Below are positions 1 through 53,650 of a DNA stretch of 64,000 nt, piece after piece (within the stretch, counting starts at the first letter, position 1; the number at the start of each line of letters is the position of its first letter). The stretch covers positions 13,958-77,957 of the forward strand of contig JASJAX010000008.1 of assembly GCA_030066755.1 (NCBI GenBank), in the 5' to 3' direction. The DNA is from Acidimicrobiia bacterium (GTDB taxonomy: Bacteria > Actinomycetota > Acidimicrobiia > Spongiisociales > UBA5794). The notes beneath the pieces were generated by a model. It saw only the letters and a program-made list of their open reading frames with translations. It ran no database searches and was not told the DNA's origin. Position numbers and translations under genes: made by a program.

Positions 1-38
1 TGCCGGTGCGGGCAAGCGATGAGGGCGAGGGTGCCGTC

Positions 39-461
39 ATGACCGATGCACCGAAGCCGCACGTCGTCCAGCTGCGACTGGTCGTAGAGGCGGAGGACTT
101 CGATGCCGCGGTGGCGTTCTATCGCGACACTCTCGGCCTGGAACCCGAGTTCGACATCGAGAGCGACGGGGGTGCGCACGTCGTCGCTCTCCAGGTCGGC
201 CGTGCCACGCTCGAGCTCGTCAACCCGCCACAGCGCCGCCTCATCGACGACCTCGAGGTCGGTCGTGACGCGAGCGGCAAGTTCCGGGTCGCGTTCGAGG
301 TCACGGACACACGGTCCGCTACTGACCTCGCAGTGGCGGGGGGTGCCGAACTCATTGCCGCCCCGACCGAGACACCGTGGCGTTCCCTCAACTCGCGCCT
401 CGAAGCCCCCGCCGGCCTGCAAATCACCCTCTTCGAGGAGCTGGAGGAGAGTAGCGAGTAG
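39..461 (+). CDS. VOC/glyoxalase-family protein; the start is uncertain (GTG at 6 or ATG at 39) and the gene may begin upstream of the window
   Basis: Size and composition fit a glyoxalase-like fold (..VVQLRLVVEAEDFDAAVAFYRDTLGLE..). The 3' end, encoding EELEESSE, runs into the heptamer repeat. Confidence 0.5.
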   Translation: MTDAPKPHVVQLRLVVEAEDFDAAVAFYRDTLGLEPEFDIESDGGAHVVALQVGRATLELVNPPQRRLIDDLEVGRDASGKFRVAFEVTDTRSATDLAVAGGAELIAAPTETPWRSLNSRLEAPAGLQITLFEELEESSE

Positions 462-526
462 CGAGTAGCGAGTAGCGAGTACTCAGACTGGCGACTGGCG
501 ACTGGCGACTGGCAACTGGCGACTGG
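449..526. repeat. Tandem heptamer array: GAGTAGC x4 followed by GACTGGC x6
   Basis: Direct reading. The stop codon of the upstream CDS lies inside the array. Confidence 0.9.
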
Positions 527-657
527 CGCCGAAGGCGCCCCAAAGGCCCTTTGTCCCTGGTACGACGCGTAGGTTTTACAGAAGATCAAATCTGCGCTGT
601 GCGTGGGTACACGCCGCATCGGAGCATCGGAAGGGATCCCGTCACAAGGAGTGGCTG

Positions 658-1755
658 ATGGCTATTGAGGTACGGAAGGTCGTTCTCGAGAGTGTGAGTG
701 ACGCATCGGGCTTGGCCGAGCTCATCGACAAGGGTGTGTTCGAGGCGGACGGCGTCATCGCCGTCGTCGGCAAGACCGAGGGCAACGGCGGCGTCAACGA
801 CTTCACCCGGATCCTCGCCGATCAGGCATTCCGCAAGGTGTTGATGGAGCGGGGGACCCGTCCCGAAGAGGAAGTTGCCGAGATCCCGATGGTGTGGTCC
901 GGGGGCACCGACGGCATCCTGTGTCCCCATGCGACCGTGTTTGCGCGTGTCGACGACAAGGAACCGGCCTCGGATGAACCGCGGCTGGCCGTGGGCTACG
1001 CCATGAGCGACACGATCCTCCCGGAGGACATCGGCCGGCCCGCCATGGTGGAGAAGGTAGCCGAGGGCGTGCGGCGAGCCATGGGCGAAGCCGGCATCAC
1101 GGATCCGGCCGACGTGCATTACGTCCAGACGAAGACTCCGTTGCTCGTCATGGAGACGATCAACGATGCGAAGGCACGAGGCCACACCGTGTTCACCGAG
1201 GATCCGCTGGAGTCGATGAACGTGTCCAACGGCACGTCGGCACTCGGCATTGCCGTTGCGCTCGGTGAGATCGATATGCCGTCGGCCGAGCAGATCGGCC
1301 ATGACCTCAGCCTGTTCTCGTCGGTGGCCTCGTGCTCGTCCGGCGTCGAACTCGATCAAGCCCAGACCGTCGTCGTGGGGAATGCGCCCGGCGCCGGTGG
1401 CCGGTATCGCATCGGCCACGACGTCATGAACGATGCGCTCGACTTCGAAGGGGTGTACCGAGCGATCCGCAACGCAGGCCTCGACCTGCCCGACCGTGCT
1501 CGGCCCGAGGACCTCGATGGACGTCTCGTCAATGTCTTCGCCAAGTGTGAGGCCGACCCCACCTCCCGCCTGCGAGGGCGGCGCCAAGTGTCCCTCGACG
1601 ACTCCGACGTGCACCACCACCGCCACATCAAGGGTGCAGTCGGCGGTGTGATCGCCGCTGCCATCAACGATGCGGCAGTGTTCGTCTCGGTGGCGGCACT
1701 CCATCAAGGTCCATCGGGTGGCGGACCCGTCGCCGCGATCGTCGATCTCGGCTGA
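658..1755 (+). CDS. Ring-opening amidohydrolase of the barbiturase / cyanuric acid amidohydrolase (AtzD/TrtA) family; candidate barbiturase
   Basis: 365 aa. The N-terminal motif [16 protein letters not shown] matches the AtzD/barbiturase signature (KTEGNGCVNDYTR in AtzD). An AAGGAG RBS lies upstream. The size is typical of this three-repeat fold. Confidence 0.75.
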
Positions 1756-2601
1756 TTGGTGACCGCACCGGCGGTTGAGCAGGCGGCACCGCCGGCACTC
1801 GTTGAGGTGCCGGCGGTGGCCAGCCTCGCCGTGAGAGCCCTGGTCGCCGGACGACGCAGACGGTTCGGGGTGCTTGGAGCCTCGACCCACGCTGTGTGGC
1901 TCGACGGAGGTCACGACGTGCTCGTGCTTTCGACCCGCGATGCGACCCGGCTGCCCAACAGCGTGGAGCTGCCCTTCGATGCAGACCGAGCGTTGATGGC
2001 GAGTATTCCGCCCGGCGACACGATGCAGGTCGGCGGCGGTTTTGTCACCGGTGGACCGCTGACCGTGCGCGTCGTTCGTTGGTGGGATCCGCGGCTCGTT
2101 CTGGCGCCCGTCGCGCCGGGTGTGCTCGAGCGTCGTCTCAACGGCCTACCGGGCGAGGTCCCCGGGATCGACTCAGAGCCGCTGGCGTGTGCGATCCGGG
2201 CCCGGTGCCCCACCGGCGTACTCGACGCAGCAACCGAGCTGCTCGGTCTCGGGGACGGGTTGACCCCGGAGGCCGACGACATGGTGGCCGGCACACTGGC
2301 CGGAACTCGGTGTCTCGGTCACGCACTCGGTATGCGACGAAGCGTGGCTGCGCTCGACGCCGTTGCTCCGGTGCTGATGGCGACCGCAATGGCTCGTACG
2401 ACGACGTTCTCGGCCGCCTTGCTTCGGCACGCGCTGCGGGGCGAGGTTGCGGCTCCCGCTGCAGCTTTCCTCCGCGCCTTGGCCGGCCGTGGAGACGTTG
2501 TCGCTGCCCACACGCAATTGAGAAAGGTTGGACACTCGTCCGGTCGGGCGCTGGCGGCGGGCATCGTTCTCGCCGGGCGCACGCTGATCGCGACCGCATG
2601 A
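1756..2601 (+). CDS. DUF2877-like protein, the YlbF-type component of the FdrA/YlbE/YlbF trio
   Basis: About 280 aa and Ala/Gly-rich. It abuts the upstream stop and sits directly before the FdrA and DUF1116 homologs. The assignment rests on size plus context and is weaker on sequence. Confidence 0.4.
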   Translation: MVTAPAVEQAAPPALVEVPAVASLAVRALVAGRRRRFGVLGASTHAVWLDGGHDVLVLSTRDATRLPNSVELPFDADRALMASIPPGDTMQVGGGFVTGGPLTVRVVRWWDPRLVLAPVAPGVLERRLNGLPGEVPGIDSEPLACAIRARCPTGVLDAATELLGLGDGLTPEADDMVAGTLAGTRCLGHALGMRRSVAALDAVAPVLMATAMARTTTFSAALLRHALRGEVAAPAAAFLRALAGRGDVVAAHTQLRKVGHSSGRALAAGIVLAGRTLIATA

Positions 2602-2617
2602 TTGAAGGAGATGCCAG

Positions 2618-4054
2618 ATGATCGCTCGGGTCGAGGTTCAGCCCGGTCGGTACCACGACTCGGTGCGCCTGATGCAGGCCAGCAAGGTGTTGCAGGAGCT
2701 TCCCGGGATCGCCGACGCCCTCGTTGCCATGGGGACCGAGCTGAACCTCAGTCTCCTCGCCGACATGGGTTTCGATGCCGACGCTGCGGCGGGTGCGGGT
2801 CCGAATGACCTGTTGCTCGCGGTCAGGGCGGAGAACGACCAGGTGATGGAAGCCGCCCGACTCGCGCTCGAAGCCGCGTTGTCCGCGAAGCCGGTTGCGT
2901 CCGGGGGTCTGGATGGACCGGAGCCGCGCACCGTAGGTTCCGTAGCCGCACGAAGCGACGCGAACGTGGCATTGCTGTCGATGCCGGGAGAGCATGTGTT
3001 CGTCGAAGCGATGGACGCGCTCGACGCCGGCCTCCACGTGATGATCTTCAGCGACAACGTTCCTCTCGAGCAGGAGATTGCGCTGAAGGCCGCCGCCTCC
3101 AACCGGGGGCTGCTCGTCATGGGGCCGGATTGCGGCACGGCCATCGTCGGCGGTGTTGGCCTCGGGTTTGCCAATGCGATGCAACCCGGACCGGTCGGCA
3201 TCGTGGGTGCTTCAGGCACGGGCATTCAAGAGCTGTGCTGCCTGCTCGACGACGCCGACGTCGGCGTCACCCATGCACTCGGTACCGGCAGTCGAGACCT
3301 CTCTGAGTCCGTGGGCGCAGTCTCCACTCTGCAGGCGCTCAGCGCACTCGACACCCATCCACCAACGGAGCTGATCGTGGTGATCTCGAAGCCCCCCGCG
3401 GCGTCCGTTGCAGCGCGAGTCCGGGGAGCAGCCGCTGCTTGCAGTACGCCCACTGTCGTCACCTTCATGGGAGAAACCACGATCGAAGAGGGCGCTGCCG
3501 AGGTGTTGATGCGGCTCGGGGTCCCCGAGCCTGCGTATCGCTCGTGGGACTCCGGAGGTGGTCCGGTGCGACAGGGAACGATCCGAGGGCTGTTCTCCGG
3601 AGGAACGCTCCGCGACGAAGCGAGGTTCATCGCCATGGCCGAAGTCGGCGAGGTCGGCACGGTCGAAACCGCAGACGGTCACTGTTTCGTCGACTATGGG
3701 GACGACGAGTACACCAAGGGTCGTGCCCACCCAATGATCGACCAAACGGTGCGGCTCGATCGGCTGGCTGCCGCTGCCGATGATGCAACCATCGGCGTCA
3801 TCCTGATGGACGTCGTGCTCGGCTACGGCGCCAACCCGGACCCGGCATCCGAGCTCACCCCGATGATCCAGCGGGCAACGGACGCAGGAGCCGCCGTGGT
3901 GGTGTCGCTCTGCGGCACGCGGGGCGACCCGCAAGGCCGAGACGAGCAAGCCGCCGCACTCAACGGCGCCGGAGCGTCGGTGTGGCTCTCCAATGCCGCG
4001 GCCGCCCGTGAAGCCGTGCGCGTCTTCGCGGCGACGAACGGAGGCACGACGTGA
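2618..4054 (+). CDS. FdrA-family protein (succinyl-CoA-synthetase-alpha-like CoA-binding/ligase-CoA domains)
   Basis: The N-terminal MIARVEVQPGRYHDSVRLMQASK.. resembles the FdrA start. An SCS-alpha-like block VMGPDCGTAIVGG..GIVGASGTGIQEL is present. AAGGAG RBS upstream; GTGA overlap with the next gene. Confidence 0.65.
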   Translation: MIARVEVQPGRYHDSVRLMQASKVLQELPGIADALVAMGTELNLSLLADMGFDADAAAGAGPNDLLLAVRAENDQVMEAARLALEAALSAKPVASGGLDGPEPRTVGSVAARSDANVALLSMPGEHVFVEAMDALDAGLHVMIFSDNVPLEQEIALKAAASNRGLLVMGPDCGTAIVGGVGLGFANAMQPGPVGIVGASGTGIQELCCLLDDADVGVTHALGTGSRDLSESVGAVSTLQALSALDTHPPTELIVVISKPPAASVAARVRGAAAACSTPTVVTFMGETTIEEGAAEVLMRLGVPEPAYRSWDSGGGPVRQGTIRGLFSGGTLRDEARFIAMAEVGEVGTVETADGHCFVDYGDDEYTKGRAHPMIDQTVRLDRLAAAADDATIGVILMDVVLGYGANPDPASELTPMIQRATDAGAAVVVSLCGTRGDPQGRDEQAAALNGAGASVWLSNAAAAREAVRVFAATNGGTT

Positions 4055-5457
4055 GCGATCTCGACCAACTCCTCGACACTGAGGCATCGGTTGCAGCAGT
4101 CGGCACCGAGATGCTCGCTGCGGCCATCGATCAGCAGGGTGCCGCAGTTCACCGTGCCGATTGGCAACCACCGACACCGGGAACCGCGGCCGCGCTGGCG
4201 CGGCTCGCAGCAGGTGGGAGTACGGCCGAAGCGAACTCGACCGCCTTGACCCGAATGCTGGCCGTTCGGCCACAACTCACCGACGTCAGCACGGCGATCG
4301 AGGTGATCCCGGGCATGACCGAGCGGACGTTCCTCCACGCCGGTCCACCTCTCGAATGGGAACGCGCCAGCGGGCCGACGCGCGGAGCCCTCATCGGCGC
4401 CCTCATCTACGAGGGTCTGGCAGCCGATCCAAGTGAAGCTGAGGCGATTGCGGCGGCCGGCGAGATCGAGCTGTCACCGTGCCATCATCATTCGGCCGTT
4501 GGACCGATGGCCGGCGTCACGTCTGCGTCGATGCCGGTTGCGGTGGTCGAAGATGCTGCCGGCGATGGTGTGGCGTACTCAACGCTCAACGAAGGACTCG
4601 GGAAGGTCCTTCGATACGGTGCGTTCGCCGCGGAAGTCATTGAACGGTTGCGCTGGATGCAAGAGGTCCTCGGACCCGTACTCGGCGCAGCCCTGCGCAG
4701 CAGGGGACCGATCGGCCTCCAGTCGTTGATCGCGCAAGCGCTGCAGATGGGCGACGACGGCCACAATCGCAATCGGGCCGTGACCTCGCTGTTCCTGCGT
4801 GAGATCGGAGGTGCGCTCGTCGACGGAGCGGACGCTCCGGTGACCGACCGCAAGGCCGTCTTCGAGTTCATCGACGGCAACGACCACTTCATGCTCAATC
4901 TCGTCATGGCCGCCGGGAAGCTCGGGTCCGACGCCGCCGCCGGCGTAGCGGCATCGAGCTTGGTGACCGTCATGGCTCGGAACGGAACCGACTTCGGGGT
5001 TCGGCTGTCGGGAACGGGGGATGCCTGGTTCACGGCGCCGGCTCCGCCGGTTGATGGGCTCTACCTCGGCGCCTTCACGGAAGATGACGCCAGCCCGGAC
5101 ATCGGAGACTCGACGATCACGGAGACGGTCGGTCTCGGAGGCTTTGCGATGGCGGCGGCCCCGGCCATCGTCGGCTTTGTCGGCGGCACGGCTGCAGGCG
5201 CCGTTCGTCGCACCCTGGCGATGTACGAGATCACGCTCGGAGAGCACCCGGCGTATCAGATCCCCATGCTCGAGTTCCGTGGAACCCCCGTCGGGATCGA
5301 TGCGGCGCTCGTTGTGCGGACCGGAATCCGACCTCAGATCAACACGGGGGTTGCCGGCAAGGTCCCGGGCACCGGCATGGTCGGTGCCGGGTTGGTTGAA
5401 GCCCCCATGGAATGCTTTACAGAAGGTATAACTGCCCTAGCGGAGAGATTGGAGTAG
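4051..5457 (+). CDS. DUF1116 (YlbE-like) protein
   Basis: 468 aa. Its start overlaps the FdrA stop (GTGA), and it sits in the conserved position between the FdrA homolog and the next operon genes. Confidence 0.5.
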   Translation: MSDLDQLLDTEASVAAVGTEMLAAAIDQQGAAVHRADWQPPTPGTAAALARLAAGGSTAEANSTALTRMLAVRPQLTDVSTAIEVIPGMTERTFLHAGPPLEWERASGPTRGALIGALIYEGLAADPSEAEAIAAAGEIELSPCHHHSAVGPMAGVTSASMPVAVVEDAAGDGVAYSTLNEGLGKVLRYGAFAAEVIERLRWMQEVLGPVLGAALRSRGPIGLQSLIAQALQMGDDGHNRNRAVTSLFLREIGGALVDGADAPVTDRKAVFEFIDGNDHFMLNLVMAAGKLGSDAAAGVAASSLVTVMARNGTDFGVRLSGTGDAWFTAPAPPVDGLYLGAFTEDDASPDIGDSTITETVGLGGFAMAAAPAIVGFVGGTAAGAVRRTLAMYEITLGEHPAYQIPMLEFRGTPVGIDAALVVRTGIRPQINTGVAGKVPGTGMVGAGLVEAPMECFTEGITALAERLE

Positions 5458-5536
5458 GCGTCATCATGCCAGCGAAGGCTCCACCAGGCTTCACTGATTG
5501 CGTTTGCATCCTCAATCGGGTTGGGAGGAGATTTCC

Positions 5537-6421
5537 GTGGTGATTGCGCACGAGTTCGCATACGAACGTCCGACGACGCTCGAGGAAGCCACACGGGTGT
5601 TGACGGAACACTCCGGGTCGGTACGGCTCTTGGCTGGAGGCACCGATCTCGTCGCTTGGTTGCGCGACGACGCGGTCGCTCCGGATCTCGTGGTCGACAT
5701 CAAAGCGATCCCCGGTCTCGACACCATCGAGCTCGATGGTGACGAGCTTCACGTCGGATCGCTCGTGACCTTCACGGACTTGATCGAGTCCGAAGTAGTT
5801 GCCGAGCATGCTCCGTTGCTCATCGAAATGGCTGAGACCGTCGCGTCTCCCGGTATCCGGAATCGGGCCACCATGGTCGGCAATATCTGCTCGGCGGTCC
5901 CGTCGTGCGACGCGGGGCCGGTACTGATGGCCTACGACACGACCGTACATCTCATCGGACCGGGCGGCGCCCGGTCCGTTTCGATTGACGACTGGTTCAT
6001 CGGTCTGCGTGAGACGGCGTGTTCCGACGACGAGGTGGTCACCCACTTGACCCTTGCGCTGCGGCCGCACGGCGGGGTGTATGTGAAGCTGATGCGCTAC
6101 GGCGGAGAAGACCTCGCTCAGGCAGCCGTCGGCATCGTCGAGTACCCCGGCCACGAATACCGCGTCGCGTTTGGCGCAGTCGCCCCAACACCGATTCGGG
6201 CGCACCGCATCGAAGAAGTGCTTCGAGGGAAGCCGCTCGGTGAGGAAGTGATCGCTGATGCCGTGGCGTTGGTCCGCGACGAGATCAGCCCGATCACCGA
6301 CATGCGAGCCACCGCGGAGTACCGGGCACGGATGTGCGAGGTGATGCTCGAACGGGGGCTGGCCGCCTCCCACGAGCGACTCGAAGGCGCGGGACCTGCC
6401 TACGGCACTCGACTGATCTGA
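5537..6421 (+). CDS. FAD-binding subunit (CoxM/XdhB-like) of a xanthine-dehydrogenase-family molybdoenzyme
   Basis: A GGGAGGAG RBS lies 6 nt before the GTG. A CoxM-like FAD-binding (FAD_binding_5) and CO_dehydrogenase-flavoprotein C-terminal pattern is present (LLAGGTDL..). Confidence 0.8.
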   Translation: MVIAHEFAYERPTTLEEATRVLTEHSGSVRLLAGGTDLVAWLRDDAVAPDLVVDIKAIPGLDTIELDGDELHVGSLVTFTDLIESEVVAEHAPLLIEMAETVASPGIRNRATMVGNICSAVPSCDAGPVLMAYDTTVHLIGPGGARSVSIDDWFIGLRETACSDDEVVTHLTLALRPHGGVYVKLMRYGGEDLAQAAVGIVEYPGHEYRVAFGAVAPTPIRAHRIEEVLRGKPLGEEVIADAVALVRDEISPITDMRATAEYRARMCEVMLERGLAASHERLEGAGPAYGTRLI

Positions 6422-6431
6422 GAGGACGGCT

Positions 6432-6902
6432 ATGGAGCTATCACTGAACGTCAACAACGAGGAGTGGGCCCTCGACGTTGCTCCGGCAGACGTCCTCCTC
6501 GACGTGTTGCGGGAGCGGGTTGGTACGAAGAGCCCGAAGATCGGGTGTGAGCGCGGCGACTGCGGCTCGTGCACGATTCTGATCGACGGCCGCTCAGTGC
6601 GGAGTTGCCTGGTGCTCGCCGTCGAGGCCGAGGGACACGAGATCACCACGGTTGAAGGCATCGGCGCTGATCACCTGAGCGAGTTGCAGAACCTCTTCAT
6701 CTCGAACAATTCCTTCCAATGCGGATTCTGCGCTCCGGGAATCGTGTTGTCCGCCACCGAACTGTTGGCACGCAACCCATCGCCGAGTCGCCATGACGTC
6801 CAGGAGGCCCTGTCGGGCAACCTGTGTCGCTGCACCGGGTACGAGCCGATCATCGAGGCGGTCCTGGCTGCGGGTGAGCGGAACGAGGAGGTGTCCGCAT
6901 GA
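6432..6902 (+). CDS. 2Fe-2S iron-sulfur subunit (CoxS-like)
   Basis: Cysteine motifs CERGDCGSCT, CGFCAPG and CRCTGY are present. Confidence 0.85.
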   Translation: MELSLNVNNEEWALDVAPADVLLDVLRERVGTKSPKIGCERGDCGSCTILIDGRSVRSCLVLAVEAEGHEITTVEGIGADHLSELQNLFISNNSFQCGFCAPGIVLSATELLARNPSPSRHDVQEALSGNLCRCTGYEPIIEAVLAAGERNEEVSA

Positions 6903-9280
6903 CGACGACGTATCCGTTCGAAGCCGATTCGGTCGACGATGCGCTGACGGCCGTGGGCACGCCGGCGGTACGGATCGACGGCCTCGACAAGATCAGTGGA
7001 GCGGCACAGTTCGTCGATGATCTCGACTTCGGGCCCGACCTGCTGCACGGTGCGGTCGTCGAAAGCCCGCATGCGTACGCCCGGATCGTTTCGATCGACA
7101 CGAGCGCGGCCGAAGCGGCGCCGGGTGTCGTCAAGGTCATCACCGGCGAGGACTTCCCGTACAACTTCGGCATGTACATGGAGGATCGGTACATCTTCGC
7201 CCAGCACCATGTGCGCTTCGTCGGCGAGCAGGTCGCCGGTGTGATTGCCCGGACGCATCGCCAGGCGGTTCGAGCAGCCAAGCTGGTGGAGGTCGAATAC
7301 GAGGTGCTCGAGCCCCTGCTCGATCCCAAGGAGGCGGTCGCTGAAGACGCCCCGCTGATTCACCCGAACCTCGGTGACTACGCGCACGTGCCGTGGTTCT
7401 TCCCGAAGGCCGACACCAACATCGCCCACTGGCGAAAGATCCGCAAAGGTGACACGGAGAAGGCGTTCGCTGAGGCCGACTACGTACTCGAAGACACCTA
7501 TCGAGTGCCTCGCTACGCGCATTGCGCTATCGAGCCCCATGTCACAGTCGGCAAACTCGATCATGCAGGCCGACTGACGGTGTGGACGGCGTCGCAGTCG
7601 CCACACACGCAGCGGCACCTCTTCGCCGAAGCGCTGGCGCCACTCGGATTCGCCCACAAGGACGTACGGGTCATCACCCCGTACGTCGGGGGCGGATTCG
7701 GGGGGAAGGCCGGCGTGTCGATGGAGATCATCGGCGCAGCAATGGCGACGGCCGTCAAGGGGCACCCGGTCAAGCTGCGGTTCACCCGCGAGCAGGAGTT
7801 CTACAACACCTATCAACGTCAAGGTGTGGTCGCCGAACTCAAGGTCGGCGTGATGAACAACGGCACGATCACTGCGGTCGAGCACAAGCTCTACTGGGAC
7901 GCCGGCGCGTACGTCGAGTACGGCGCCAACGTCGTCAACGCCGCCGGTCTGTCGGCAACCGGGCCATATCGCGTCCCGAACATCAGCAACGATTCGTTGT
8001 GTGTGTACACCAACCTGCCACCGGGTGGTCCGTACCGCGGATTCGGGTACTCCGAATTCCACTTCGGTCTCGAGTCGCACATGGATCGCATCGCCGAAGC
8101 GATCGGAATGGATCCGGTTGATTTCCGCCGCAAGAACGCCATCGTCGAAGGCGACGAACTGTCGTACGGCGGCCATATGAACCCGTCGGGAATGATCGAA
8201 GCGATCGACAAGACGGCAGCGGCGATCGAGTGGGGCGTCGACGAGGAGTCGAAGAACCCGAACACCATCATGGGCAAGGGGGTCGCCCTGTTCTGGAAGG
8301 CCCCGGCGATGCCCCCGAACGCGTCGTCGGCGTCGTTCCTCAAGTTCAACGAGGACGGCAGCGTCAACGTGAGCGTGTCGGGCATGGAACTCGGTCAGGG
8401 GTACCTCACGGTGATGGCCCAGATCGCAGCTGAGATCCTTGGGCTGCCCGTCGAGATGGTCCGGGTCGAGACGCCCGACACGGATCGCAATCCGTACGAG
8501 TGGCAGACCGTGGCATCGCACGTGACCTGGAGCTCAGGTCTCGCCGTCGAGAAGGCTGCGATCGAAGCACGCGCCAAGATCTTCGAGGTCATCCACGAGG
8601 TCTACGGCTTCGAGGACGAGACGCTCTACCTCGAAGATCAGAAGGTGAAGTGCACCACGGATCCGGAGTTCGCCAAACCGCTCCGCGAGTTCGTGATCGA
8701 CGGTATCCAAACCGACGACGGCACCTGGCGGGGTGGTCCGATCATCGCCAGCGGCAAGTTCATGCCGGAGTTCACGAATGCGAACAGCGATCCGGAGACC
8801 GGTCAGGGTGGCCACCCCAACGTGCACTACACGGTTGGTGCGTGCGGCGTCCTGATCGAGATCGACAAGGAGACCGGCCGGATCTGGGTGCGTAAGGCGG
8901 CGCTCGCGGTCGATGCCGGGAAAGCCATCAACCCCGATCTGGTGAAGGGTCAGATCACCGGCGGCCTGGTGCAGGGACTGGCAACCGTCCTGTACGAGGA
9001 CATGCGCTTCGATGACGACGGCCGGCTCATGAACCCGAACTTCACCGACTACAAGATCCCGACGTCGTTCGACATTCCTGACGAGATGATCCCGATCATC
9101 GTCGAGGTCCCTCAGCCGGACGGCCCGTTTGGCGCCCGTGGCGTGGGCGAGCACACGATGATTGCCGCCGCACCCGTGATTGCGAACGCGGTCTACAACG
9201 CCCTCGGCGTCCGGATCAAGTCCATGCCCATCACCCAGGAGAAGATCGCGCTGGCCGTAACCGACCGGCACCACAACTGA
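6899..9280 (+). CDS. Molybdopterin-binding large subunit (xanthine dehydrogenase / aldehyde oxidase family); candidate uracil/thymine dehydrogenase catalytic subunit
   Basis: 793 aa. ATGA overlap with the FeS subunit. The GGGFGGK motif is present and the CODH-type AYRCSFR loop is absent. Confidence 0.8.
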   Translation: MTTTYPFEADSVDDALTAVGTPAVRIDGLDKISGAAQFVDDLDFGPDLLHGAVVESPHAYARIVSIDTSAAEAAPGVVKVITGEDFPYNFGMYMEDRYIFAQHHVRFVGEQVAGVIARTHRQAVRAAKLVEVEYEVLEPLLDPKEAVAEDAPLIHPNLGDYAHVPWFFPKADTNIAHWRKIRKGDTEKAFAEADYVLEDTYRVPRYAHCAIEPHVTVGKLDHAGRLTVWTASQSPHTQRHLFAEALAPLGFAHKDVRVITPYVGGGFGGKAGVSMEIIGAAMATAVKGHPVKLRFTREQEFYNTYQRQGVVAELKVGVMNNGTITAVEHKLYWDAGAYVEYGANVVNAAGLSATGPYRVPNISNDSLCVYTNLPPGGPYRGFGYSEFHFGLESHMDRIAEAIGMDPVDFRRKNAIVEGDELSYGGHMNPSGMIEAIDKTAAAIEWGVDEESKNPNTIMGKGVALFWKAPAMPPNASSASFLKFNEDGSVNVSVSGMELGQGYLTVMAQIAAEILGLPVEMVRVETPDTDRNPYEWQTVASHVTWSSGLAVEKAAIEARAKIFEVIHEVYGFEDETLYLEDQKVKCTTDPEFAKPLREFVIDGIQTDDGTWRGGPIIASGKFMPEFTNANSDPETGQGGHPNVHYTVGACGVLIEIDKETGRIWVRKAALAVDAGKAINPDLVKGQITGGLVQGLATVLYEDMRFDDDGRLMNPNFTDYKIPTSFDIPDEMIPIIVEVPQPDGPFGARGVGEHTMIAAAPVIANAVYNALGVRIKSMPITQEKIALAVTDRHHN

Positions 9281-9305
9281 GTCAAACCGAAGGAGAAGGA
9301 GCTGC

Positions 9306-10064
9306 ATGTCCGTCGACCTAGAGAAGATCCTTCGACCGGTTGACACCCCGATGAAGCCGTACGAGCCCAAGTACATGCTCTTGGCGAGCGGCGAAGCGGT
9401 GGTCGTCCGCCAGGTCGAACGTGACGAGATTCCCGATCTCTTGAAACACGTGGAGCCGCTCCTTCACGTGGAGCGCGACTTCTACGACGTGGTGGCGGCT
9501 CGGGTCTACTCCGAACTGCTGGCCCACTACCGGCACCGCTACCAGGACCAATACGTCCTCGCCGTCCAGATCGACGGCGAGCTCGCCGCCATCGTCAACG
9601 GACGCCAGGTCACGCCGAAGCTCGGTATGTCCCTGCACACGTTGGCCTTGCGGCGCGGCCTCCGGGTCGGGGCGCACGCGTTTGCCGCCAAGATGGAGTA
9701 CCACATCGACACGCTCGGCCACGACGAGGTGCTCATCGTCGCCGAGTCTCCGATCGGATTCCGTCGCTGGATGATCGAGTACAAGCTCGAGAAGCGATTC
9801 GACATCCCACACGAACTCGGTGGCGTGCCCTCGTGGGCGCTGACCCGCGAGTTGTTCGATCGGGCACGGTCGAGCCTCGTTGTAGGTCGCCGGCCGGTTC
9901 CCGATGAGCTGCTCGACAAGGCCATGGCGGCGATCTTGCCGCCGTCGGATCCGCCGACGCCACCGCTCGATCCGCTCGCCGCCACCCGGTCGATGTACGA
10001 CCCCACCGCGACCTCGTTGATGGCGCAGCGCTGGGAGATGGAAGGGAGGTCGGCCGATGCGTGA
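9306..10064 (+). CDS. Hypothetical protein, possibly a GNAT-like acyltransferase fold
   Basis: 252 aa, in-operon, with an 8-nt overlap with the downstream thiolase. I could not assign a family. Confidence 0.35.
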   Translation: MSVDLEKILRPVDTPMKPYEPKYMLLASGEAVVVRQVERDEIPDLLKHVEPLLHVERDFYDVVAARVYSELLAHYRHRYQDQYVLAVQIDGELAAIVNGRQVTPKLGMSLHTLALRRGLRVGAHAFAAKMEYHIDTLGHDEVLIVAESPIGFRRWMIEYKLEKRFDIPHELGGVPSWALTRELFDRARSSLVVGRRPVPDELLDKAMAAILPPSDPPTPPLDPLAATRSMYDPTATSLMAQRWEMEGRSADA

Positions 10065-11232
10065 CGTGTATGTCGCCGGGATCGGGATCACGACCTTCAC
10101 CCGGCTCGAATACCCGTTGTCGGAGATCGCGTCGTATGCGTCGATGATGGCCTTGAAGGACGCCGGCGTCACCGAGGTCGATCAGGTCTACGTCGCCAAC
10201 ATGGGGAGCCCTCGGGTGAACCACCAGACGGCCCTGGCCAGTGCGGTCGTCGACAGCCTGAGCCTGATGCCTGCAGGTGCGGCCGCGATCGAAAACGGGC
10301 CGGCCTCCGGCGCATCGGCCATCAAGGCCGGCTTCCAGGCGGTGGCATCGGGGATGGAGGACGTCGTTCTCGTCGCCGGCGTCGAACGGATGCGTGAGGT
10401 CAACAACCTCGAGGCCACGGACTTCGTCGCCACGCTGACGCATCCGCTCGCCGAGTACATCTACGGCGTCACTCTGCCGGCACACGCGGCGATGTTCACT
10501 CGGATGTACATGGACCGGTACGGCGTCACGGAACGCCATCTCGCCATGGTCGGCGTGAAGAACCAGAACGCAGCGCTCAACAACGTCTGGGCGCACCTGC
10601 AGCAGGAGATCACTCTCGAGGGAATCCTCGACTCGCCCGAAGCGATGACGAACAACCCGTACGTGGCCGAGCCGCTCCGGTTCTTCGACGCATGCCCGGT
10701 CTCCGACGGCGGGGCCGCCTTGGTGCTCGTCAGCGAGGAGAAAGCGCGAGAGCTGGGCCGTCCAATGATCAGGATCACCGGTGTTGGGCAAGCCACGGAC
10801 ACGCACGCAGTGTTCGAACGAGAGGATCCGACGGATCTGCTCGCCGTCCGCAAGGCGGCAAAGGATGCGTTCGCAATGGCCGGTCTCAGCCCATCGGACG
10901 TCGACGTGGCCGAACTCCACGATGCGTTCACCATCCTCGAGATCGTCGAGAGTGAAGAGGTGGGCTTCTTCCCGAAGGGAGAAGGCCACATCGCCCTGGA
11001 GAAGGGAGAGACCGCCCTCGGCGGTTCGATTCCGATCAATGTCGGCGGAGGTCTCAAGGGCCGCGGTCATCCGGTCGGCGCCACAGGCGTCGCGCAGGCG
11101 TGGGAGATCGTCACCCAGCTGCGTGGCGACGGCGAAGCCCGACAGGTGGAAGGTGCCCGCATCGGGTTCACCTGCAACTTCGGCGGTTTCGGCAACAACG
11201 TGGTGTGTCTCACCTTCGTGAGGGAGGACTGA
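10057..11232 (+). CDS. SCP-x/DitF-type thiolase-like protein (thiolase superfamily)
   Basis: 391 aa with a thiolase fold and C-terminal GFGNNVV..-type motifs. It is followed directly by a DUF35 partner, as is typical of SCP-x thiolases. Confidence 0.75.
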   Translation: MRDVYVAGIGITTFTRLEYPLSEIASYASMMALKDAGVTEVDQVYVANMGSPRVNHQTALASAVVDSLSLMPAGAAAIENGPASGASAIKAGFQAVASGMEDVVLVAGVERMREVNNLEATDFVATLTHPLAEYIYGVTLPAHAAMFTRMYMDRYGVTERHLAMVGVKNQNAALNNVWAHLQQEITLEGILDSPEAMTNNPYVAEPLRFFDACPVSDGGAALVLVSEEKARELGRPMIRITGVGQATDTHAVFEREDPTDLLAVRKAAKDAFAMAGLSPSDVDVAELHDAFTILEIVESEEVGFFPKGEGHIALEKGETALGGSIPINVGGGLKGRGHPVGATGVAQAWEIVTQLRGDGEARQVEGARIGFTCNFGGFGNNVVCLTFVRED

Positions 11233-11579
11233 TGGCTCGCGAGATCTACGCCTACAAGTGCCGCCTGTGCGGGACGCTCCACTACCCGTTCCGCATGGTG
11301 TGCAAGGAGTGCAAGCAGAACGACTTCTTCGAGTTCGACACCGTGCCGCTCCCGAAGGCGGGCACGCTCGTGACTTGGACGCGGGTGTACAACCTCCCGG
11401 CCCAGTACGAGGTGGCCACGCTCGGTCTCGGCATCGTCGAACTCGAGAACGGCATGCGGATGCTCGGACAGCTGGAGATCAGTGAGCCCGAGCTCGGTAT
11501 GGCAGTGATCGGCAACGTCGAAGTGGTGCGGAAGGAGCCGTACGACGACTACTACGGGATGGTGTTCAGGGCAGCCTGA
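11233..11579 (+). CDS. Zn-ribbon / OB-fold DUF35 protein (thiolase partner)
   Basis: A CxxC...CxxC zinc ribbon (CRLCG...CKEC) precedes an OB fold. The start is adjacent to the thiolase stop. Confidence 0.75.
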
Positions 11580-11629
11580 GCGATAGGAAGCGTTGGGCAA
11601 ACAGACAGCAAGCGGGAGAGGAAGGGTCT

Positions 11630-12871
11630 ATGCAACTCACGATGCAGAAGAAGGTGGTGCTGGGTCTCCAGCACACCATCGCCATGTTCGGAGCAACGGT
11701 GCTTGTACCGCTGCTCACCGGGCTGAACCCCTCGGTGGCACTGATCGCCGCAGGTGTCGGAACGTTGCTGTTCCACCTGGTGACGAAGCAGATGGTTCCG
11801 GTGTTCCTCGGATCGTCGTTCGCGTTCATTCCACCGATCGTGCTCGGCGTCGAACGCGGCTACTCATGGGCGGCCATCGGAGCCGGCATTGTCGGTGCGG
11901 CGGTGATCTATCTCACGATGTCCATCATCGTCACGTTCGTCGGCCATGACATCGTGCGGCGGATCTTCCCGCCGATCGTCACCGGACCGGTCATCACGGT
12001 GATCGGTATCACCTTGGCTCCGGTTGCCATCGGGATGGCCGAAGGAACCTGGTGGTTGGCCATTGTCACGCTGGCGGCGACGTTGATCGCGGCGGTGTTC
12101 TTCAAGGGCCTGTTCAAGATGCTGCCCATCTTGACGGGAGCCATCGTCGGCTACCTGACGGCGGCGATCTTCCTCGAGGAGTTCGACTTCTCGCCGGTAG
12201 GGGACGCCGACTGGATCGGATGGCCGGAATTCACGTGGGGTCTCGGCAACATCGAATGGGCGGCGATCGCCCTCATTGCCCCGATCGCATTCGTGACGAT
12301 GATCGAGCACGTCGGCGACATCCTCGCCAACGGCCGGGTGGTTGGGAAGGACTTCTTCGACGAGCCTGGGCTCAACCGGACACTGTTGGGCGACGGTATC
12401 GCCACCATGTTTGCCGGGCTGGTTGGCGGTCCGCCGAACACGACGTATTCGGAGAACACCGGTGTCCTGGCCGTGACCAAGGTCTACGACCCGTTCATCA
12501 TTCGCATCGGCGCAGTGTTCGCCATCCTGCTGGGTCTGATCCCGAAGCTGGCGGCGATCCTCCAGACCGTGCCGGTTGCGGTGCTCGGTGGCCTCTCGAT
12601 CGTGCTGTTCGGCATGATCGCTGCCGTCGGCATGCGCACGCTGGTCGAAGCGCAGGTCGACTTCAAGAAGAGCCGCAACATGATCGTGGTCGGCCTCATC
12701 CTGGTCTTCGGCCTCGGTGTCAGTGGATTGTCGACGCCGCTCGCCATCGGTGATGTGGCGATCTCGGGTCTCGCGCTGGCCGCCGTCATCGGTGTCGCCG
12801 CAAACCTGATCCTGCCGTTGACCGAGGAGGACGAGGAAGTCGCACTGCCCGCCGACGAAATGGTGTCGTAG
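11630..12871 (+). CDS. NCS2-family nucleobase permease, UraA-like uracil permease
   Basis: Long stretches are nearly identical to E. coli UraA (LGLQHTIAMFGATVLVPLL, GSSFAFIPP, TYSENTGVLAVTKVY, FAILLGLIPKLAAILQTVP). Confidence 0.85.
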   Translation: MQLTMQKKVVLGLQHTIAMFGATVLVPLLTGLNPSVALIAAGVGTLLFHLVTKQMVPVFLGSSFAFIPPIVLGVERGYSWAAIGAGIVGAAVIYLTMSIIVTFVGHDIVRRIFPPIVTGPVITVIGITLAPVAIGMAEGTWWLAIVTLAATLIAAVFFKGLFKMLPILTGAIVGYLTAAIFLEEFDFSPVGDADWIGWPEFTWGLGNIEWAAIALIAPIAFVTMIEHVGDILANGRVVGKDFFDEPGLNRTLLGDGIATMFAGLVGGPPNTTYSENTGVLAVTKVYDPFIIRIGAVFAILLGLIPKLAAILQTVPVAVLGGLSIVLFGMIAAVGMRTLVEAQVDFKKSRNMIVVGLILVFGLGVSGLSTPLAIGDVAISGLALAAVIGVAANLILPLTEEDEEVALPADEMVS

Positions 12872-12897
12872 CGCGCAAACAAGAATGTCCCGTCACG

Positions 12898-12930
12898 GAG
12901 AAGGGGAACCGGGCACCGGTTCCCCTTCTC
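12898..12930. terminator. Perfect 15-bp inverted repeat (GAGAAGGGGAACCGG-gca-CCGGTTCCCCTTCTC) between convergent genes; likely a bidirectional terminator
   Basis: Direct reading. It lies between the permease stop (12871) and the selenoprotein stop (12941). A T-rich run follows on the minus strand. Confidence 0.7.
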
Positions 12931-12940
12931 GCGTCGCGAA

Positions 12941-13933
12941 CTAGCGGGCGACGTTTCCGGCTCGCCACGGTTCGTCGAGTTCGACAACCGTGGCGCCGGA
13001 GGGAGCGTTCTCGAGTAACTCCAATGCGGACGAGATGACCCGGCGTTGGCGATCCCGATCGCCGGATGCCCCCAAGGGTCGTCCCATCGGATGTTGCGTG
13101 ATCAGCGTGCGGGGGAGACGCATGACCTCGGCGACGTGCTTGAACGCACGCACGAACACCGACACCGTCGGAATCCCAGCACTCTCGAAGGCTCTGGCGA
13201 CGTGTCCGACCGACACGTGGCACACCGGTCAGACGGGAACGAGCAACAGGACATCGATCGCATCGGACTGCAGCTGTTCGACCCAGCCCGGGATTGCCTG
13301 CTTCCGGAGCCGGCCCTGTGAGGTCGCACCGGTGAAGGAGTACATCGGCGAGCTGAGTTCACCGATGACCCCGTCGGCTTCGAGCGATTGCAGGATGCTG
13401 AGCGGGAATGCCACCTCTCGATCGTGCGACACACTGCGGACGTCATACCCACCATGGCGAACGCGTAGGTCGGTTGGTTCGAGGTCGGTTGGGATCGCAG
13501 AGAATTCCGGGGTGTCGCGTAGGAACTCACCGATTCGCTCCTCCGCTTCAGCCTGCGTCATGTTCTCCACACCGAACGGCTTCGGGTCGTCGCCCTCGGC
13601 GAAATGGCCCGAGCTCGTGAGCACTCCGACACGGCTCTCCGCCACGGGCTTCGCAAGCGGAGTGAACGGGGCATCGTCATACGCGTGGTTGCGACCGCTG
13701 CCCTCGTACCCACGGCGCTGCCACTCGAACACGAGCTGATGAATCGGGCTGATGTCGCCGTCGTCGAGACTGTGACCTACTTGCCACAACAGCTGGCGGA
13801 AGAACTCCCCGGCATCGTCGTCGGTGAGGGACTTCAGGAACTTGAAGGTGAGGTCGGACCGGGAGCCGTAGCTGAAGGAGTTCTTGAACTCTTCCAAGGT
13901 CTCGGCTGCGGGCGTGGCGTTCTCGTCGTTCAT
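12941..13933 (-). CDS. GrdB-like (glycine/sarcosine/betaine/proline reductase selenoprotein B family) selenoprotein with in-frame TGA (Sec) at 13229-13231
   Basis: Two track ORFs (13229..13933 and 12941..13225) are in the same frame and separated only by TGA. The read-through sequence ..DAIDVLLLVPV-U-PVCHVSVGHVARAFESAGIPTV.. matches the GrdB/PrdB U-x-x-C context. A hairpin sits 11 nt downstream. Confidence 0.65.
13200..13218 (-). ncRNA. SECIS-like stem-loop (ACGUGUC-GGUCG-GACACGU) 11 nt 3' of the in-frame UGA
   Basis: Direct reading on the mRNA strand. A 7-bp stem with a G/U-containing loop at the spacing expected for a bacterial SECIS. Confidence 0.5.
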
Positions 13934-52660: not shown

Positions 52661-53650
52661 TCAGCGGTAGGCAGGCCCGGCTGGTCCACGCCGCACGACG
52701 GCCGCCCATACCGTGTCGTAGTGATCACGATCGAACGGGTCGATGTGGGGAAGCACGAACTCCTCCCATGAACGGCGGAGTGGGTCCGCAGCGCTGTTGT
52801 AGACGCGCAGTCCGGCCGGAATCCGATCGAGCACGGTCCGCAGGCTCATCGGCGTCTCGACCCGCGTGCGAGCGTCGGTCGAGGTGAACGACGCGTTGAC
52901 CTCGACGGCCAGTTTGGCGATCAGCTCGCGAAACTCGACCTTGAGGCCGGGATGCCGGCGATCGAGCATGGACGTCAGCTGGTCCTCAGCGGGGAAGTCC
53001 TTCTCCCAAATGATCCAGCGGTCGGCGAAGGCCTTGTTCAGTGTCTGCGTTCCGGCGTAGTCGCGTAGGTCCGTCGGGTTGAGCGTGCCGAACACTCGGA
53101 CGTCATCGCGCAGGCGCACGAGTTCGCCGGTCGGAAGCTCGAGCGCGCGATGTCGATCGAGGAGACCGTGCAGCGCAAACAACGTCTCGGCGCCGGCGGC
53201 ATTGAGCTCCGAGAGGTTGATGAGCGCCGGGCCTCGCAATGCGCGGGTGATGTCGCCGTCCTCCCAGCGGGATTCCGTGCCGCCCTTGCCGTCCCCGTGC
53301 AGCTTGACCGACCCGATGAGGGTGATGTCACGGACCTCCCCGGTCAGCGGGATCCGATAGTGGGGCATGTGCAGCAACGCGGCGAACTGCTCGAGATCGT
53401 GGTCTTTCCCGGTTCCCATGTGTCCGCGAAGTGCGAGATGTAGGGGGGTGTCCGCAAAGGCGCCGCGGCGAACCTGTTCGAGCTGCGCCAACCGGTACAG
53501 CATCCCGAGGTCGACGTAGTACGGGTCGGGCTCGGGAATGTGCGCCGCACGGAGTTCAGCGTCGGACAGGTCCTTGGGTAGGGCGACCGTCTCGAGCTCG
53601 ATGGGCGGGCCCTCGCCGGTCGGATCGGTGAAGGTCACGATGTCAGACAT
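52661..53650 (-). CDS. CobS-like AAA+ ATPase (AAA_5 / MoxR-like)
   Basis: Colinear with CobS blocks (GHMGTGKDHDLEQFAALL, DITLIGS, FGTLNPTD..GTQTLNKAFADRW). Translationally coupled (ATGTCTGA overlap) to the upstream VWA gene. Confidence 0.65.
   Translation of the reverse strand: MSDIVTFTDPTGEGPPIELETVALPKDLSDAELRAAHIPEPDPYYVDLGMLYRLAQLEQVRRGAFADTPLHLALRGHMGTGKDHDLEQFAALLHMPHYRIPLTGEVRDITLIGSVKLHGDGKGGTESRWEDGDITRALRGPALINLSELNAAGAETLFALHGLLDRHRALELPTGELVRLRDDVRVFGTLNPTDLRDYAGTQTLNKAFADRWIIWEKDFPAEDQLTSMLDRRHPGLKVEFRELIAKLAVEVNASFTSTDARTRVETPMSLRTVLDRIPAGLRVYNSAADPLRRSWEEFVLPHIDPFDRDHYDTVWAAVVRRGPAGPAYR

Follow-up and report, generated by a model that had tools for sequence, protein, structure and literature searches.

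We analysed a 64,000-nucleotide stretch of contig JASJAX010000008.1 from an Acidimicrobiia bacterium, referred to below as the window, and focus on eleven + strand genes at positions 658-12871 that bring together a ring-opening amidohydrolase, homologues of the oxamic transcarbamylase subunits AllH, AllF and AllG, a molybdenum hydroxylase and an NCS2 permease. Ten of the eleven genes were assigned by Pfam and NCBIfam, and their coordinates are given in Table 1. The genes are tightly packed. Four neighbouring pairs overlap at their start and stop codons, by 4 nucleotides (nt) for AllF/AllG and for the iron-sulphur and molybdopterin subunits of the hydroxylase (CoxS/CoxL), by 8 nt for the 252-residue gene and the thiolase-like gene and by 1 nt for the thiolase-like and DUF35 genes; the remaining intergenic gaps in the operon are all 50 nt or less. 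No terminator-like site above chance was found inside the cluster, and a hairpin of -44.9 kcal/mol (z -4.3; fold of 12872-12960) lies 3' of the permease stop. The genes downstream are unrelated and comprise an opposite-strand GRDB-like open reading frame (ORF), TrkA, TrkH and ABC exporters. Together the overlaps and short gaps, the lack of internal terminators above chance, the hairpin after the last stop and the unrelated downstream genes confirm that the eleven genes are an operon-like unit, as had been proposed in an earlier sequence-only reading of this DNA, which described them as co-directional and partly translationally coupled. Two starts may be considered for AllH, a TTG at 1756 immediately after the barbiturase stop or the position called in the public assembly, 1816; in aligned orthologous loci the AllH ORF starts 1-6 nt past the barbiturase stop. 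Upstream of the operon no match to a sigma-70 consensus promoter was found, and positions 1-13400 of the window gave no Rfam match.

Table 1. Features of the operon and its borders (positions within the 64-kb window).
Feature	Position	Strand	Evidence or comment
Upstream intergenic region	462..657	.	presumably holds the promoter
AtzD/TrzD-family ring-opening amidohydrolase, barbiturase clade, 365 aa	658..1755	+	PF09663 490 bits; TIGR02714 516 bits
AllH-like subunit (DUF2877)	1756 or 1816..2601	+	PF11392 75 bits
AllF/FdrA-like subunit, 478 aa, CoA-binding and CoA-ligase domains	2618..4054	+	PF00549, PF02629
AllG-like subunit (DUF1116), 468 aa	4051..5457	+	PF06545 303 bits
FAD-binding subunit of a xanthine-oxidase-family molybdenum hydroxylase (type A)	5498..6421	+	PF00941, PF03450
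2x[2Fe-2S] subunit of the hydroxylase	6432..6902	+	PF01799, PF00111
Molybdopterin subunit of the hydroxylase, 793 aa	6899..9280	+	PF02738, PF20256, PF01315
Divergent GNAT-fold protein, 252 aa, small orphan family	9306..10064	+	no Pfam match
Thiolase-fold protein, archaeal/SCP-x type, 391 aa	10057..11232	+	PF22691, PF00108
DUF35 protein (zinc ribbon and OB fold), 115 aa	11232..11579	+	PF01796 31.7 bits; PF12172 19.1 bits, below the 23.2-bit cut-off
NCS2 permease, uracil-permease type, 413 aa	11630..12871	+	PF00860 317 bits
Stem-loop at the operon end, likely terminator without a T tract	12895..12930	+	fold of 12872-12960
aa, amino acids; CoA, coenzyme A; FAD, flavin adenine dinucleotide.

The first gene encodes a member of the AtzD/TrzD family, with PF09663 and TIGR02714 matches that span the full length of the protein. 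The solved Rhodococcus barbiturase, 5hwe, matches it at 537 bits and about 70% identity, whereas the best cyanuric acid hydrolase reaches 318 bits and about 45-48% identity. In the alignment the window protein and 5hwe share the motif SNG at the Arg188 position, where cyanuric acid hydrolases have SRG. A missing Arg188 is a mark of the barbiturase subgroup, and barbiturase is reported to be specific (PMC4051656). The motifs of the universally conserved Ser/Lys dyad are kept, and QTKTPLL and SCSSG are conserved. We place the protein in the barbiturase clade, with a predicted activity on barbiturate, and here the match to 5hwe and the shared SNG bear out the earlier assignment. The profile searches likewise agreed with the earlier family calls, matching AtzD with PF09663, DUF1116 with PF06545, DUF2877 with PF11392 and FdrA through PF00549 and PF02629. 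The amidohydrolase also passes NF052395, the NCBIfam equivalog for cyanuric acid amidohydrolase (470 bits, cut-off 360), which evidently captures barbiturases too. Close relatives in public sources, even a relative of the Rhodococcus barbiturase, are named 'cyanuric acid amidohydrolase', and the labelling of barbiturase-clade proteins by NF052395 looks like a systematic annotation hazard. As a separate observation on the family, a 490-residue predicted protein, P0348, carries both an amino-acid-kinase domain of the carbamate kinase type and an AtzD-family domain, and is either a fusion or a merged call of adjacent genes.

The three genes that follow encode all three subunit families of the FdrA/DUF1116/DUF2877 module, side by side, as had been read from the sequence. 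By BLASTP, AllF is 40% identical to E. coli FdrA, AllG 45% identical to YlbE and AllH 29% identical to YlbF; they are true homologues of the three subunits of oxamic transcarbamylase, with a putative activity of that kind. AllF has no counterpart of the approximately 75 C-terminal residues of E. coli FdrA. The E. coli proteins, renamed AllFGH, were purified in 2024 and are oxamic transcarbamylase, which catalyses oxamate + carbamoyl phosphate = oxalurate + phosphate and is co-transcribed with the carbamate kinase AllK (PMC11326118). According to the same authors, urease-negative enterobacteria recover ureido nitrogen via AllFGH and carbamate kinase (PMC11326118). The link of this module to oxalurate, which the sequence-only reading had described as genetic, is sound, but the word is outdated now that the link has been established biochemically (PMC11326118). 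None of allB, allC, allD and allE was seen in the window or among the recurrent neighbours of the 80 related loci described below.

A scan of one genome per species identified 468 genomes with a relative of the amidohydrolase, and the best 80 of these 468, 73-92% identical to the window protein, make up the related loci. They belong mostly to Acidimicrobiia, and also to Nitriliruptorales, Egibacteraceae, Euzebyaceae, Microthrixaceae and Haliangium. Genes in these loci were called by codon log-likelihood, a GC3-based caller having been discarded after it chose antisense ORFs. With at least 4.5 kb of downstream sequence, 56 of the 80 could be assessed for AllF and AllG, and both were present downstream of the barbiturase gene in 52 of the 56, spanning Acidimicrobiia, Nitriliruptoria and Haliangium. 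The four exceptions are two apparent deletions, one contig that ends too early and one myxobacterial locus. An amidase of the Rhodococcus or Nocardioides type, a family III CoA-transferase and a carboxyltransferase were found in none of the 80 related loci. Ten barbiturase-AllHFG clusters contain a carbamate kinase gene (TIGR00746 350 bits; NF009007 298 bits, cut-off 266), which in seven of the ten sits between barbiturase and AllH or directly upstream of AllH, as expected if carbamoyl phosphate is the product. A PucR-family regulator is encoded divergently upstream in 17 related loci.

Several further features of the related loci were observed. Locus L012 (9965-17568) contains a PucR gene flanked by two copies of barbiturase, one 90% and the other 69% identical to the window protein. 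In loci L032 and L036 barbiturase and AllH are present and AllF and AllG are missing, through deletion or misassembly. A gene for an NmrA-like NAD(P)-binding protein, absent from the window, recurs beside barbiturase or AllG in several lineages (e.g. L054, L079, L081, L058, L061, L076, L080 and the Nocardioides-type loci). A third layout, seen in Nocardioides, Blastococcus and Embleya, consists of hydantoinase A, hydantoinase B, the NmrA-like protein, carbamate kinase and barbiturase, with no AllFGH; a Rhodococcus-type molybdenum enzyme, COXG, an amidase or CN-hydrolase, and the CoA-transferase and carboxyltransferase lie nearby. The ATP-dependent hydantoinase pair is a candidate source of carbamate or carbamoyl phosphate in this third layout.

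The window itself was searched for the same functions. Neither the window nor the 10 kb upstream of it contains an amidase, urease, carbamate kinase, allantoin or urate gene, and carbamate kinase, CN-hydrolase, PucR and the Rhodococcus and Nocardioides amidases gave no tblastn match in the 64 kb. The earlier statement that the cluster has no amidase is thus correct, and over the same range no canonical ureidomalonase adjoins it. The 10 kb upstream of the window also holds no regulator gene.

The hydroxylase genes downstream of AllG encode an enzyme that we term type A. Its large subunit falls below all NCBIfam equivalog cut-offs, reaching 522 bits against the 780 set for xanthine dehydrogenase, and its best solved match is the alpha subunit of 4-hydroxybenzoyl-CoA reductase, at 330 bits. 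The sequence-only reading had taken this enzyme as the dehydrogenase of the oxidative uracil pathway. The three-subunit FAD, iron-sulphur and molybdenum composition is as described, but the large subunit is only 27% identical to the barbiturase-linked one of Rhodococcus and is not its orthologue. Context and the permease would suggest what the type A enzyme acts on. Type A occurs in 29 of the related loci. A second enzyme, type B, is the orthologue of the Rhodococcus enzyme (56-59% identical) and is present in nine AllHFG loci, where a CN-hydrolase gene follows in five of the nine and a carbamate kinase gene is found in three.

The last gene of the operon encodes a permease that passes the NCS2 model TIGR00801 (353 bits, cut-off 292). 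It scores 357 bits on the UraA model, short of the 477-bit cut-off, compared with 236 bits on the xanthine permease model; among solved structures UraA matches it best, at 286 bits. Its signature motif, ENTGVLAVTK, corresponds to ENIGVMAITR in UraA and begins with Glu, not with Gln as in xanthine and urate carriers. We consider the permease to be UraA-like, with predicted transport of the uracil type. It had been called nearly identical to UraA in key motifs, and the Glu and the best solved match support the UraA-like assignment. A xanthine-specific permease or molybdenum enzyme, named earlier as an outcome that would overturn the pyrimidine assignment, is not borne out, given the Glu of the motif and the 522 bits against 780.

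Between the hydroxylase and the permease lie three genes whose products are harder to place. The 252-residue protein had been listed as unknown. It has no Pfam, NCBIfam or PDB sequence match, a PDB profile search of its family gave nothing significant and no homologue was found in a plasmid collection; it does have a divergent GNAT fold. From our reading of the alignment its CoA-binding loop is RRGLRVGA, not the usual R/Q-x-x-G-x-G/A. Among solved structures the thiolase-fold protein is closest to the archaeal acetoacetyl-CoA thiolases 7yvy (262 bits) and 6esq (205 bits), followed by BbsB, Ltp2 and PhlC. Where the archaeal thiolase has IEAACASG the window protein has IENGPASG, so that Pro replaces the nucleophilic Cys in the alignment, and this Pro is present in 24 of 24 orthologues. 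With Pro at this position no acyl-enzyme intermediate can form, and the protein is not a thiolase in the usual sense; the earlier label of SCP-x thiolase fails as a statement of function. The steroid aldolase Ltp2 has a thiolase fold without the nucleophilic Cys and works with a DUF35 partner. A DUF35 partner is also encoded here, as had been noted, by a gene whose start shares one base with the thiolase-like stop and whose product matches PF01796 at 31.7 bits and the BbsA model weakly.

Genes for the GNAT-fold, thiolase-like and DUF35 proteins are found in 28, 26 and 25 of the 29 type A loci, respectively, and in none of the type B loci. These three proteins probably form one complex, which may act on the malonyl or malonamate portion, or earlier in the pathway. 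One genome contains a 6-kb inserted alpha-2-macroglobulin-like gene that separates barbiturase-AllHFG from the molybdenum enzyme, GNAT, thiolase-like, DUF35 and permease genes, so that the operon consists of two blocks. Eleven long loci without the molybdenum enzyme had raised the idea that the molybdenum/GNAT/thiolase-like block is dispensable, but this was dropped for at least one genome, in which the block is present at a distance of 6 kb.

Two remoter homologues of the 252-residue protein pointed to a sister layout, in which GNAT, thiolase-like, DUF35, AllH, AllF and AllG genes are followed by a PF04199 'cyclase' hydrolase and the type A molybdenum enzyme. A metagenome scan with the PF04199 protein returned more than 565 stretches, and the counts that follow come from the best 80. 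AllF and AllG lie upstream of the PF04199 gene in 38 of the 40 loci that could be assessed and the type A enzyme downstream of it in 29 of 32, and 16-17 of 24 loci have the GNAT, thiolase-like and DUF35 genes. Barbiturase was found in none of the 80 sister loci, and conversely neither the window nor the barbiturase loci contain PF04199. Identity between the two layouts is 67-72% for the molybdenum large subunit and 73-77% for the GNAT and thiolase-like proteins, but only 43-54% for AllF and AllG. Most simply, barbiturase and the PF04199 hydrolase would be alternative ring-opening enzymes in one pathway frame. The sequence-only reading had assigned the thiolase-like, DUF35 and 252-residue proteins to the three-carbon product of ureidomalonate cleavage. 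This is unproven, and it must count as a guess because the three co-vary with the molybdenum enzyme and AllHFG even in this barbiturase-free operon. Further genes in some sister loci are an amidase-signature gene that is convergent and accompanied by YdcZ, an Amidohydro_1 cyclic amidohydrolase or a fragment of a carbamate kinase gene.

On balance we think it somewhat probable that the operon serves to take up uracil or a closely related pyrimidine and to degrade it oxidatively through a variant barbiturate pathway. The base would be imported by the UraA-like permease and may then be converted to barbiturate by the type A molybdenum hydroxylase. The barbiturase-clade enzyme would open barbiturate to ureidomalonate, a step that its approximately 70% identity to the solved enzyme strongly suggests. 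Ureidomalonate is the one-carbon homologue of oxalurate, the known substrate of AllFGH, and AllH-AllF-AllG is predicted to cleave it with phosphate to carbamoyl phosphate and malonamate, and to prefer ureidomalonate and malonamate as its substrates. We infer this fourth step because of the homology to the purified E. coli enzyme and the conserved gene neighbourhood; in Rhodococcus a urea-releasing amidase is thought to do the same job. Carbamoyl phosphate could finally yield adenosine triphosphate (ATP), ammonia and CO2 via carbamate kinase, whose gene is found in related clusters and not in the window, or could enter arginine or pyrimidine synthesis. The type B loci show the proposed route in its cleanest form; there the CN-hydrolase could deamidate malonamate and is a candidate malonamidase. 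The phosphorolytic route with AllHFG in place of ureidomalonase was the central proposal of the sequence-only reading. As a replacement of genes it holds up well (52 of 56 loci, with carbamate kinase in ten clusters), and for the chemistry comparative genomics gives support short of proof. As far as searchable full texts show, the AllFGH-barbiturase route is undescribed; we found no full-text literature linking barbiturase or barbiturate with FdrA, YlbE or YlbF, although subscription journals were largely outside reach and a prior description is possible.

Several points weigh against this interpretation. AllF scores 414 bits on the curated FdrA model NF004760, below its 433-bit cut-off. Uracil as the substrate of the molybdenum enzyme is a guess, because the large subunit is so distant from the Rhodococcus enzyme and falls below the xanthine dehydrogenase cut-off. 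By tblastn and gene listing, carbamate kinase is absent from the 64-kb window and the 10 kb upstream, and carbamate kinase alone is not specific evidence for AllFGH chemistry because Nocardioides-type clusters pair it with barbiturase without AllFGH. There is no obvious malonamate-deamidating enzyme among the operon genes. The sister operon, without barbiturase, leaves room for a different heterocycle as the substrate.

This last point is the basis of an explanation that we consider unlikely, though not to be dismissed lightly, in which AllHFG performs the same acylurea phosphorolysis on the product of another N-heterocycle. The type A molybdenum enzyme and the GNAT, thiolase-like and DUF35 proteins would prepare or trim the ring, and barbiturase or the PF04199 hydrolase would open the product. 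The type A large subunit, 27% identical to that of Rhodococcus and with a CoA-ester reductase as its best solved match, fits such a role, as does the close association of the GNAT, thiolase-like and DUF35 genes with it (28, 26 and 25 of 29 loci). The type A set also recurs at 67-77% identity beside AllHFG and PF04199 with barbiturase in 0 of 80 loci, some of which have the Amidohydro_1 cyclic amidohydrolase as well. Set against this are an amidohydrolase about 70% identical to an authentic barbiturase, an enzyme reported to be specific (PMC4051656), the UraA-like permease, and the clusters with the Rhodococcus-type molybdenum enzyme, which share the barbiturase-AllHFG core. A broader form of the idea, which we put forward tentatively as possible though rather less than probable, is that AllHFG, the type A hydroxylase and the GNAT/Cys-less thiolase/DUF35 proteins constitute a widespread N-heterocycle pathway with an interchangeable ring-opening hydrolase. 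AllFGH-type enzymes would then be general acylurea phosphorylases, and the three orphan proteins a new complex acting on the malonyl, malonamate or acylurea portion, for instance by decarboxylation or by thioester formation without a thiolase nucleophile.

The remaining alternatives keep less of the proposed chemistry, and we regard all three as improbable. In one, an FdrA-like acyl-CoA-forming enzyme or a GNAT protein running in reverse would split ureidomalonate (N-malonylurea) to urea and malonyl-CoA, and the Cys-less thiolase-fold and DUF35 proteins would decarboxylate malonyl-CoA to acetyl-CoA. AllF does have CoA-binding and CoA-ligase domains, the GNAT and thiolase folds in the operon are both typical of acyl-CoA enzymes, and the family III CoA-transferase and carboxyltransferase of the Rhodococcus- and Nocardioides-type clusters are absent from the window. 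However, E. coli AllFGH, the homologous complex, works as a transcarbamylase independently of CoA (PMC11326118), carbamate kinase sits beside AllH in related clusters, type B AllHFG clusters have none of the GNAT, thiolase-like and DUF35 genes, and in our reading of the alignment the GNAT-like protein has an atypical-looking CoA-binding loop. Less probable again is that AllHFG is an ordinary oxamic transcarbamylase acting on oxalurate derived from purines or allantoin, with a xanthine dehydrogenase and a barbiturase that is an accidental neighbour. The homology to E. coli AllFGH, the xanthine dehydrogenase models as best NCBIfam matches of the molybdenum subunits and the PucR-type regulators upstream in 17 related loci would agree with this. 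The xanthine dehydrogenase scores are nevertheless far under the cut-offs (522 against 780), the permease motif begins with the Glu of UraA and not the Gln of xanthine and urate carriers, and uricase, allantoinase, allantoate amidohydrolase and ureidoglycolate dehydrogenase were seen neither in the window nor as recurring genes in the related loci. Adjacency of barbiturase and AllHFG in 52 of 56 loci is not accidental, and PucR flanks the Rhodococcus barbiturase gene too. The least probable explanation is that the cluster degrades cyanuric acid, biuret or s-triazine products and that AllHFG phosphorolyses carboxybiuret or allophanate. It could draw on the NCBIfam cyanuric acid amidohydrolase equivalog that was passed (470 bits against 360) and on nitrifier genomes in which allFGHK lies beside biuH and trtA (PMC12625717). 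Yet the amidohydrolase scores 537 bits on barbiturase and 318 on the best cyanuric acid hydrolase, and lacks Arg188 as barbiturase does (PMC4051656); cyanurate breakdown has no use for a molybdenum hydroxylase or a uracil-type permease, and the loci contain no biuret hydrolase or allophanate hydrolase.

The oxidative route is the least understood route of pyrimidine breakdown, and in the searchable literature only the barbiturase gene has been tied to sequence. The preferred reading, phosphorolysis of ureidomalonate by AllHFG, is a new activity predicted from this operon and more than 50 related loci. It would extend the AllFGH-type transcarbamylase, an enzyme traced to its genes as recently as 2024 and characterised to date with oxalurate and oxamate alone. 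If it is correct, ureido nitrogen would be recovered without urea or urease, and one ATP could be gained via carbamate kinase. This may be relevant to abundant uncultured Actinomycetota of sediments, soils and waters that scavenge nucleobases. Three orphan proteins and a sister operon also emerge from the comparison as needing functions.

Outside the operon the window, with a G+C content of about 65%, contains housekeeping and unrelated genes only. The window comes from a metagenome-assembled genome of Acidimicrobiia, and contigs of such genomes carry the identical amidohydrolase sequence. The 10 kb upstream of the window start include a glyoxalase-family gene, a small ORF, AIM24, dnaE and others. 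Two perfect or near-perfect tandem arrays of heptamers, (GAGTAGC)x4.7 at 449-481 and (GACTGGC)x6.1 at 486-528, cover the stop of the glyoxalase-family gene and the beginning of the intergenic region before the operon, with the same copy numbers in four independent assemblies. The 9-mer TCCCGTCAC occurs at 638-646, just 5' of the ribosome-binding site of the first gene, and at 12888-12896, just 3' of the last stop; approximately 0.5 such matches are expected by chance per 64 kb. Further along, the - strand carries a 1469-residue Lhr-type helicase gene at 40165-44574 and, at 53643-55868, a 741-residue ORF with good coding statistics and no Pfam match.

Among known systems, the closest in overall plan is the barbiturate pathway of Rhodococcus erythropolis, with its uracil/thymine dehydrogenase, barbiturase and ureidomalonase. 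The barbiturases are about 70% identical, a three-subunit molybdenum/iron-sulphur/FAD hydroxylase and an NCS2 permease are present in the cluster, and relatives of the window share the PucR-type regulator. In Rhodococcus qingshengii, whose barbiturase is 99% identical to 5hwe, an amidase-signature gene overlaps the end of the barbiturase gene, and beyond it come genes for an aminotransferase, an NCS2 permease, the three subunits of a molybdenum hydroxylase, a COXG-like protein and hydantoinase A; on the other side of barbiturase are UPRTase, PucR, a family III CoA-transferase and a carboxyltransferase. No AllFGH genes were found near this barbiturase. The amidase-signature gene is likely the ureidomalonase gene, and its position is the one held by AllHFG in the window. 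The window differs in having no CoA-transferase, carboxyltransferase, aminotransferase or hydantoinase A/B genes and a molybdenum enzyme that is not orthologous, and in its predicted products, carbamoyl phosphate and malonamate in place of urea and malonate.

The E. coli AllFGH/AllK system of the anaerobic allantoin pathway (PMC11326118, PMC9843812) has the same three families together and a substrate of the class predicted here, an N-carbamoyl amide. There allK adjoins allH, as carbamate kinase adjoins AllH in the related barbiturase clusters. The gene order is F-G-H in E. coli and H-F-G in the window, and the allECD context of the former contrasts with the barbiturase, molybdenum hydroxylase and uracil-type permease of the latter, which has no carbamate kinase. 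The substrate predicted for the window is also one carbon longer. For the GNAT-fold, thiolase-fold and DUF35 proteins the nearest likeness is to thiolase-fold/DUF35 complexes such as archaeal thiolase-HMG-CoA synthase-DUF35, PhlACB, BbsAB and Ltp2-ChsH2, in which a thiolase fold is joined by a DUF35 partner and a third subunit. In the window a divergent GNAT-fold protein stands in place of the HMG-CoA synthase or KAS III-like third partner, and the Cys is replaced by Pro. A pathway that exists in both hydrolytic and phosphorolytic, ATP-conserving versions has a precedent in reductive uric acid degradation, where ureido cleavage is hydrolytic (UacY) in one organism and phosphorolytic (YgeW) in another (PMC12507026), although the enzyme families and the substrate are unrelated to those considered here. 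Finally, nitrifier genomes encode allFGHK beside biuH and trtA, for biuret and triuret hydrolases, with no cyanuric acid hydrolase or barbiturase genes and with oxalurate proposed as the substrate (PMC12625717). As in the window, AllFGH homologues appear there to have been recruited outside allantoin catabolism, next to enzymes for ureido compounds.

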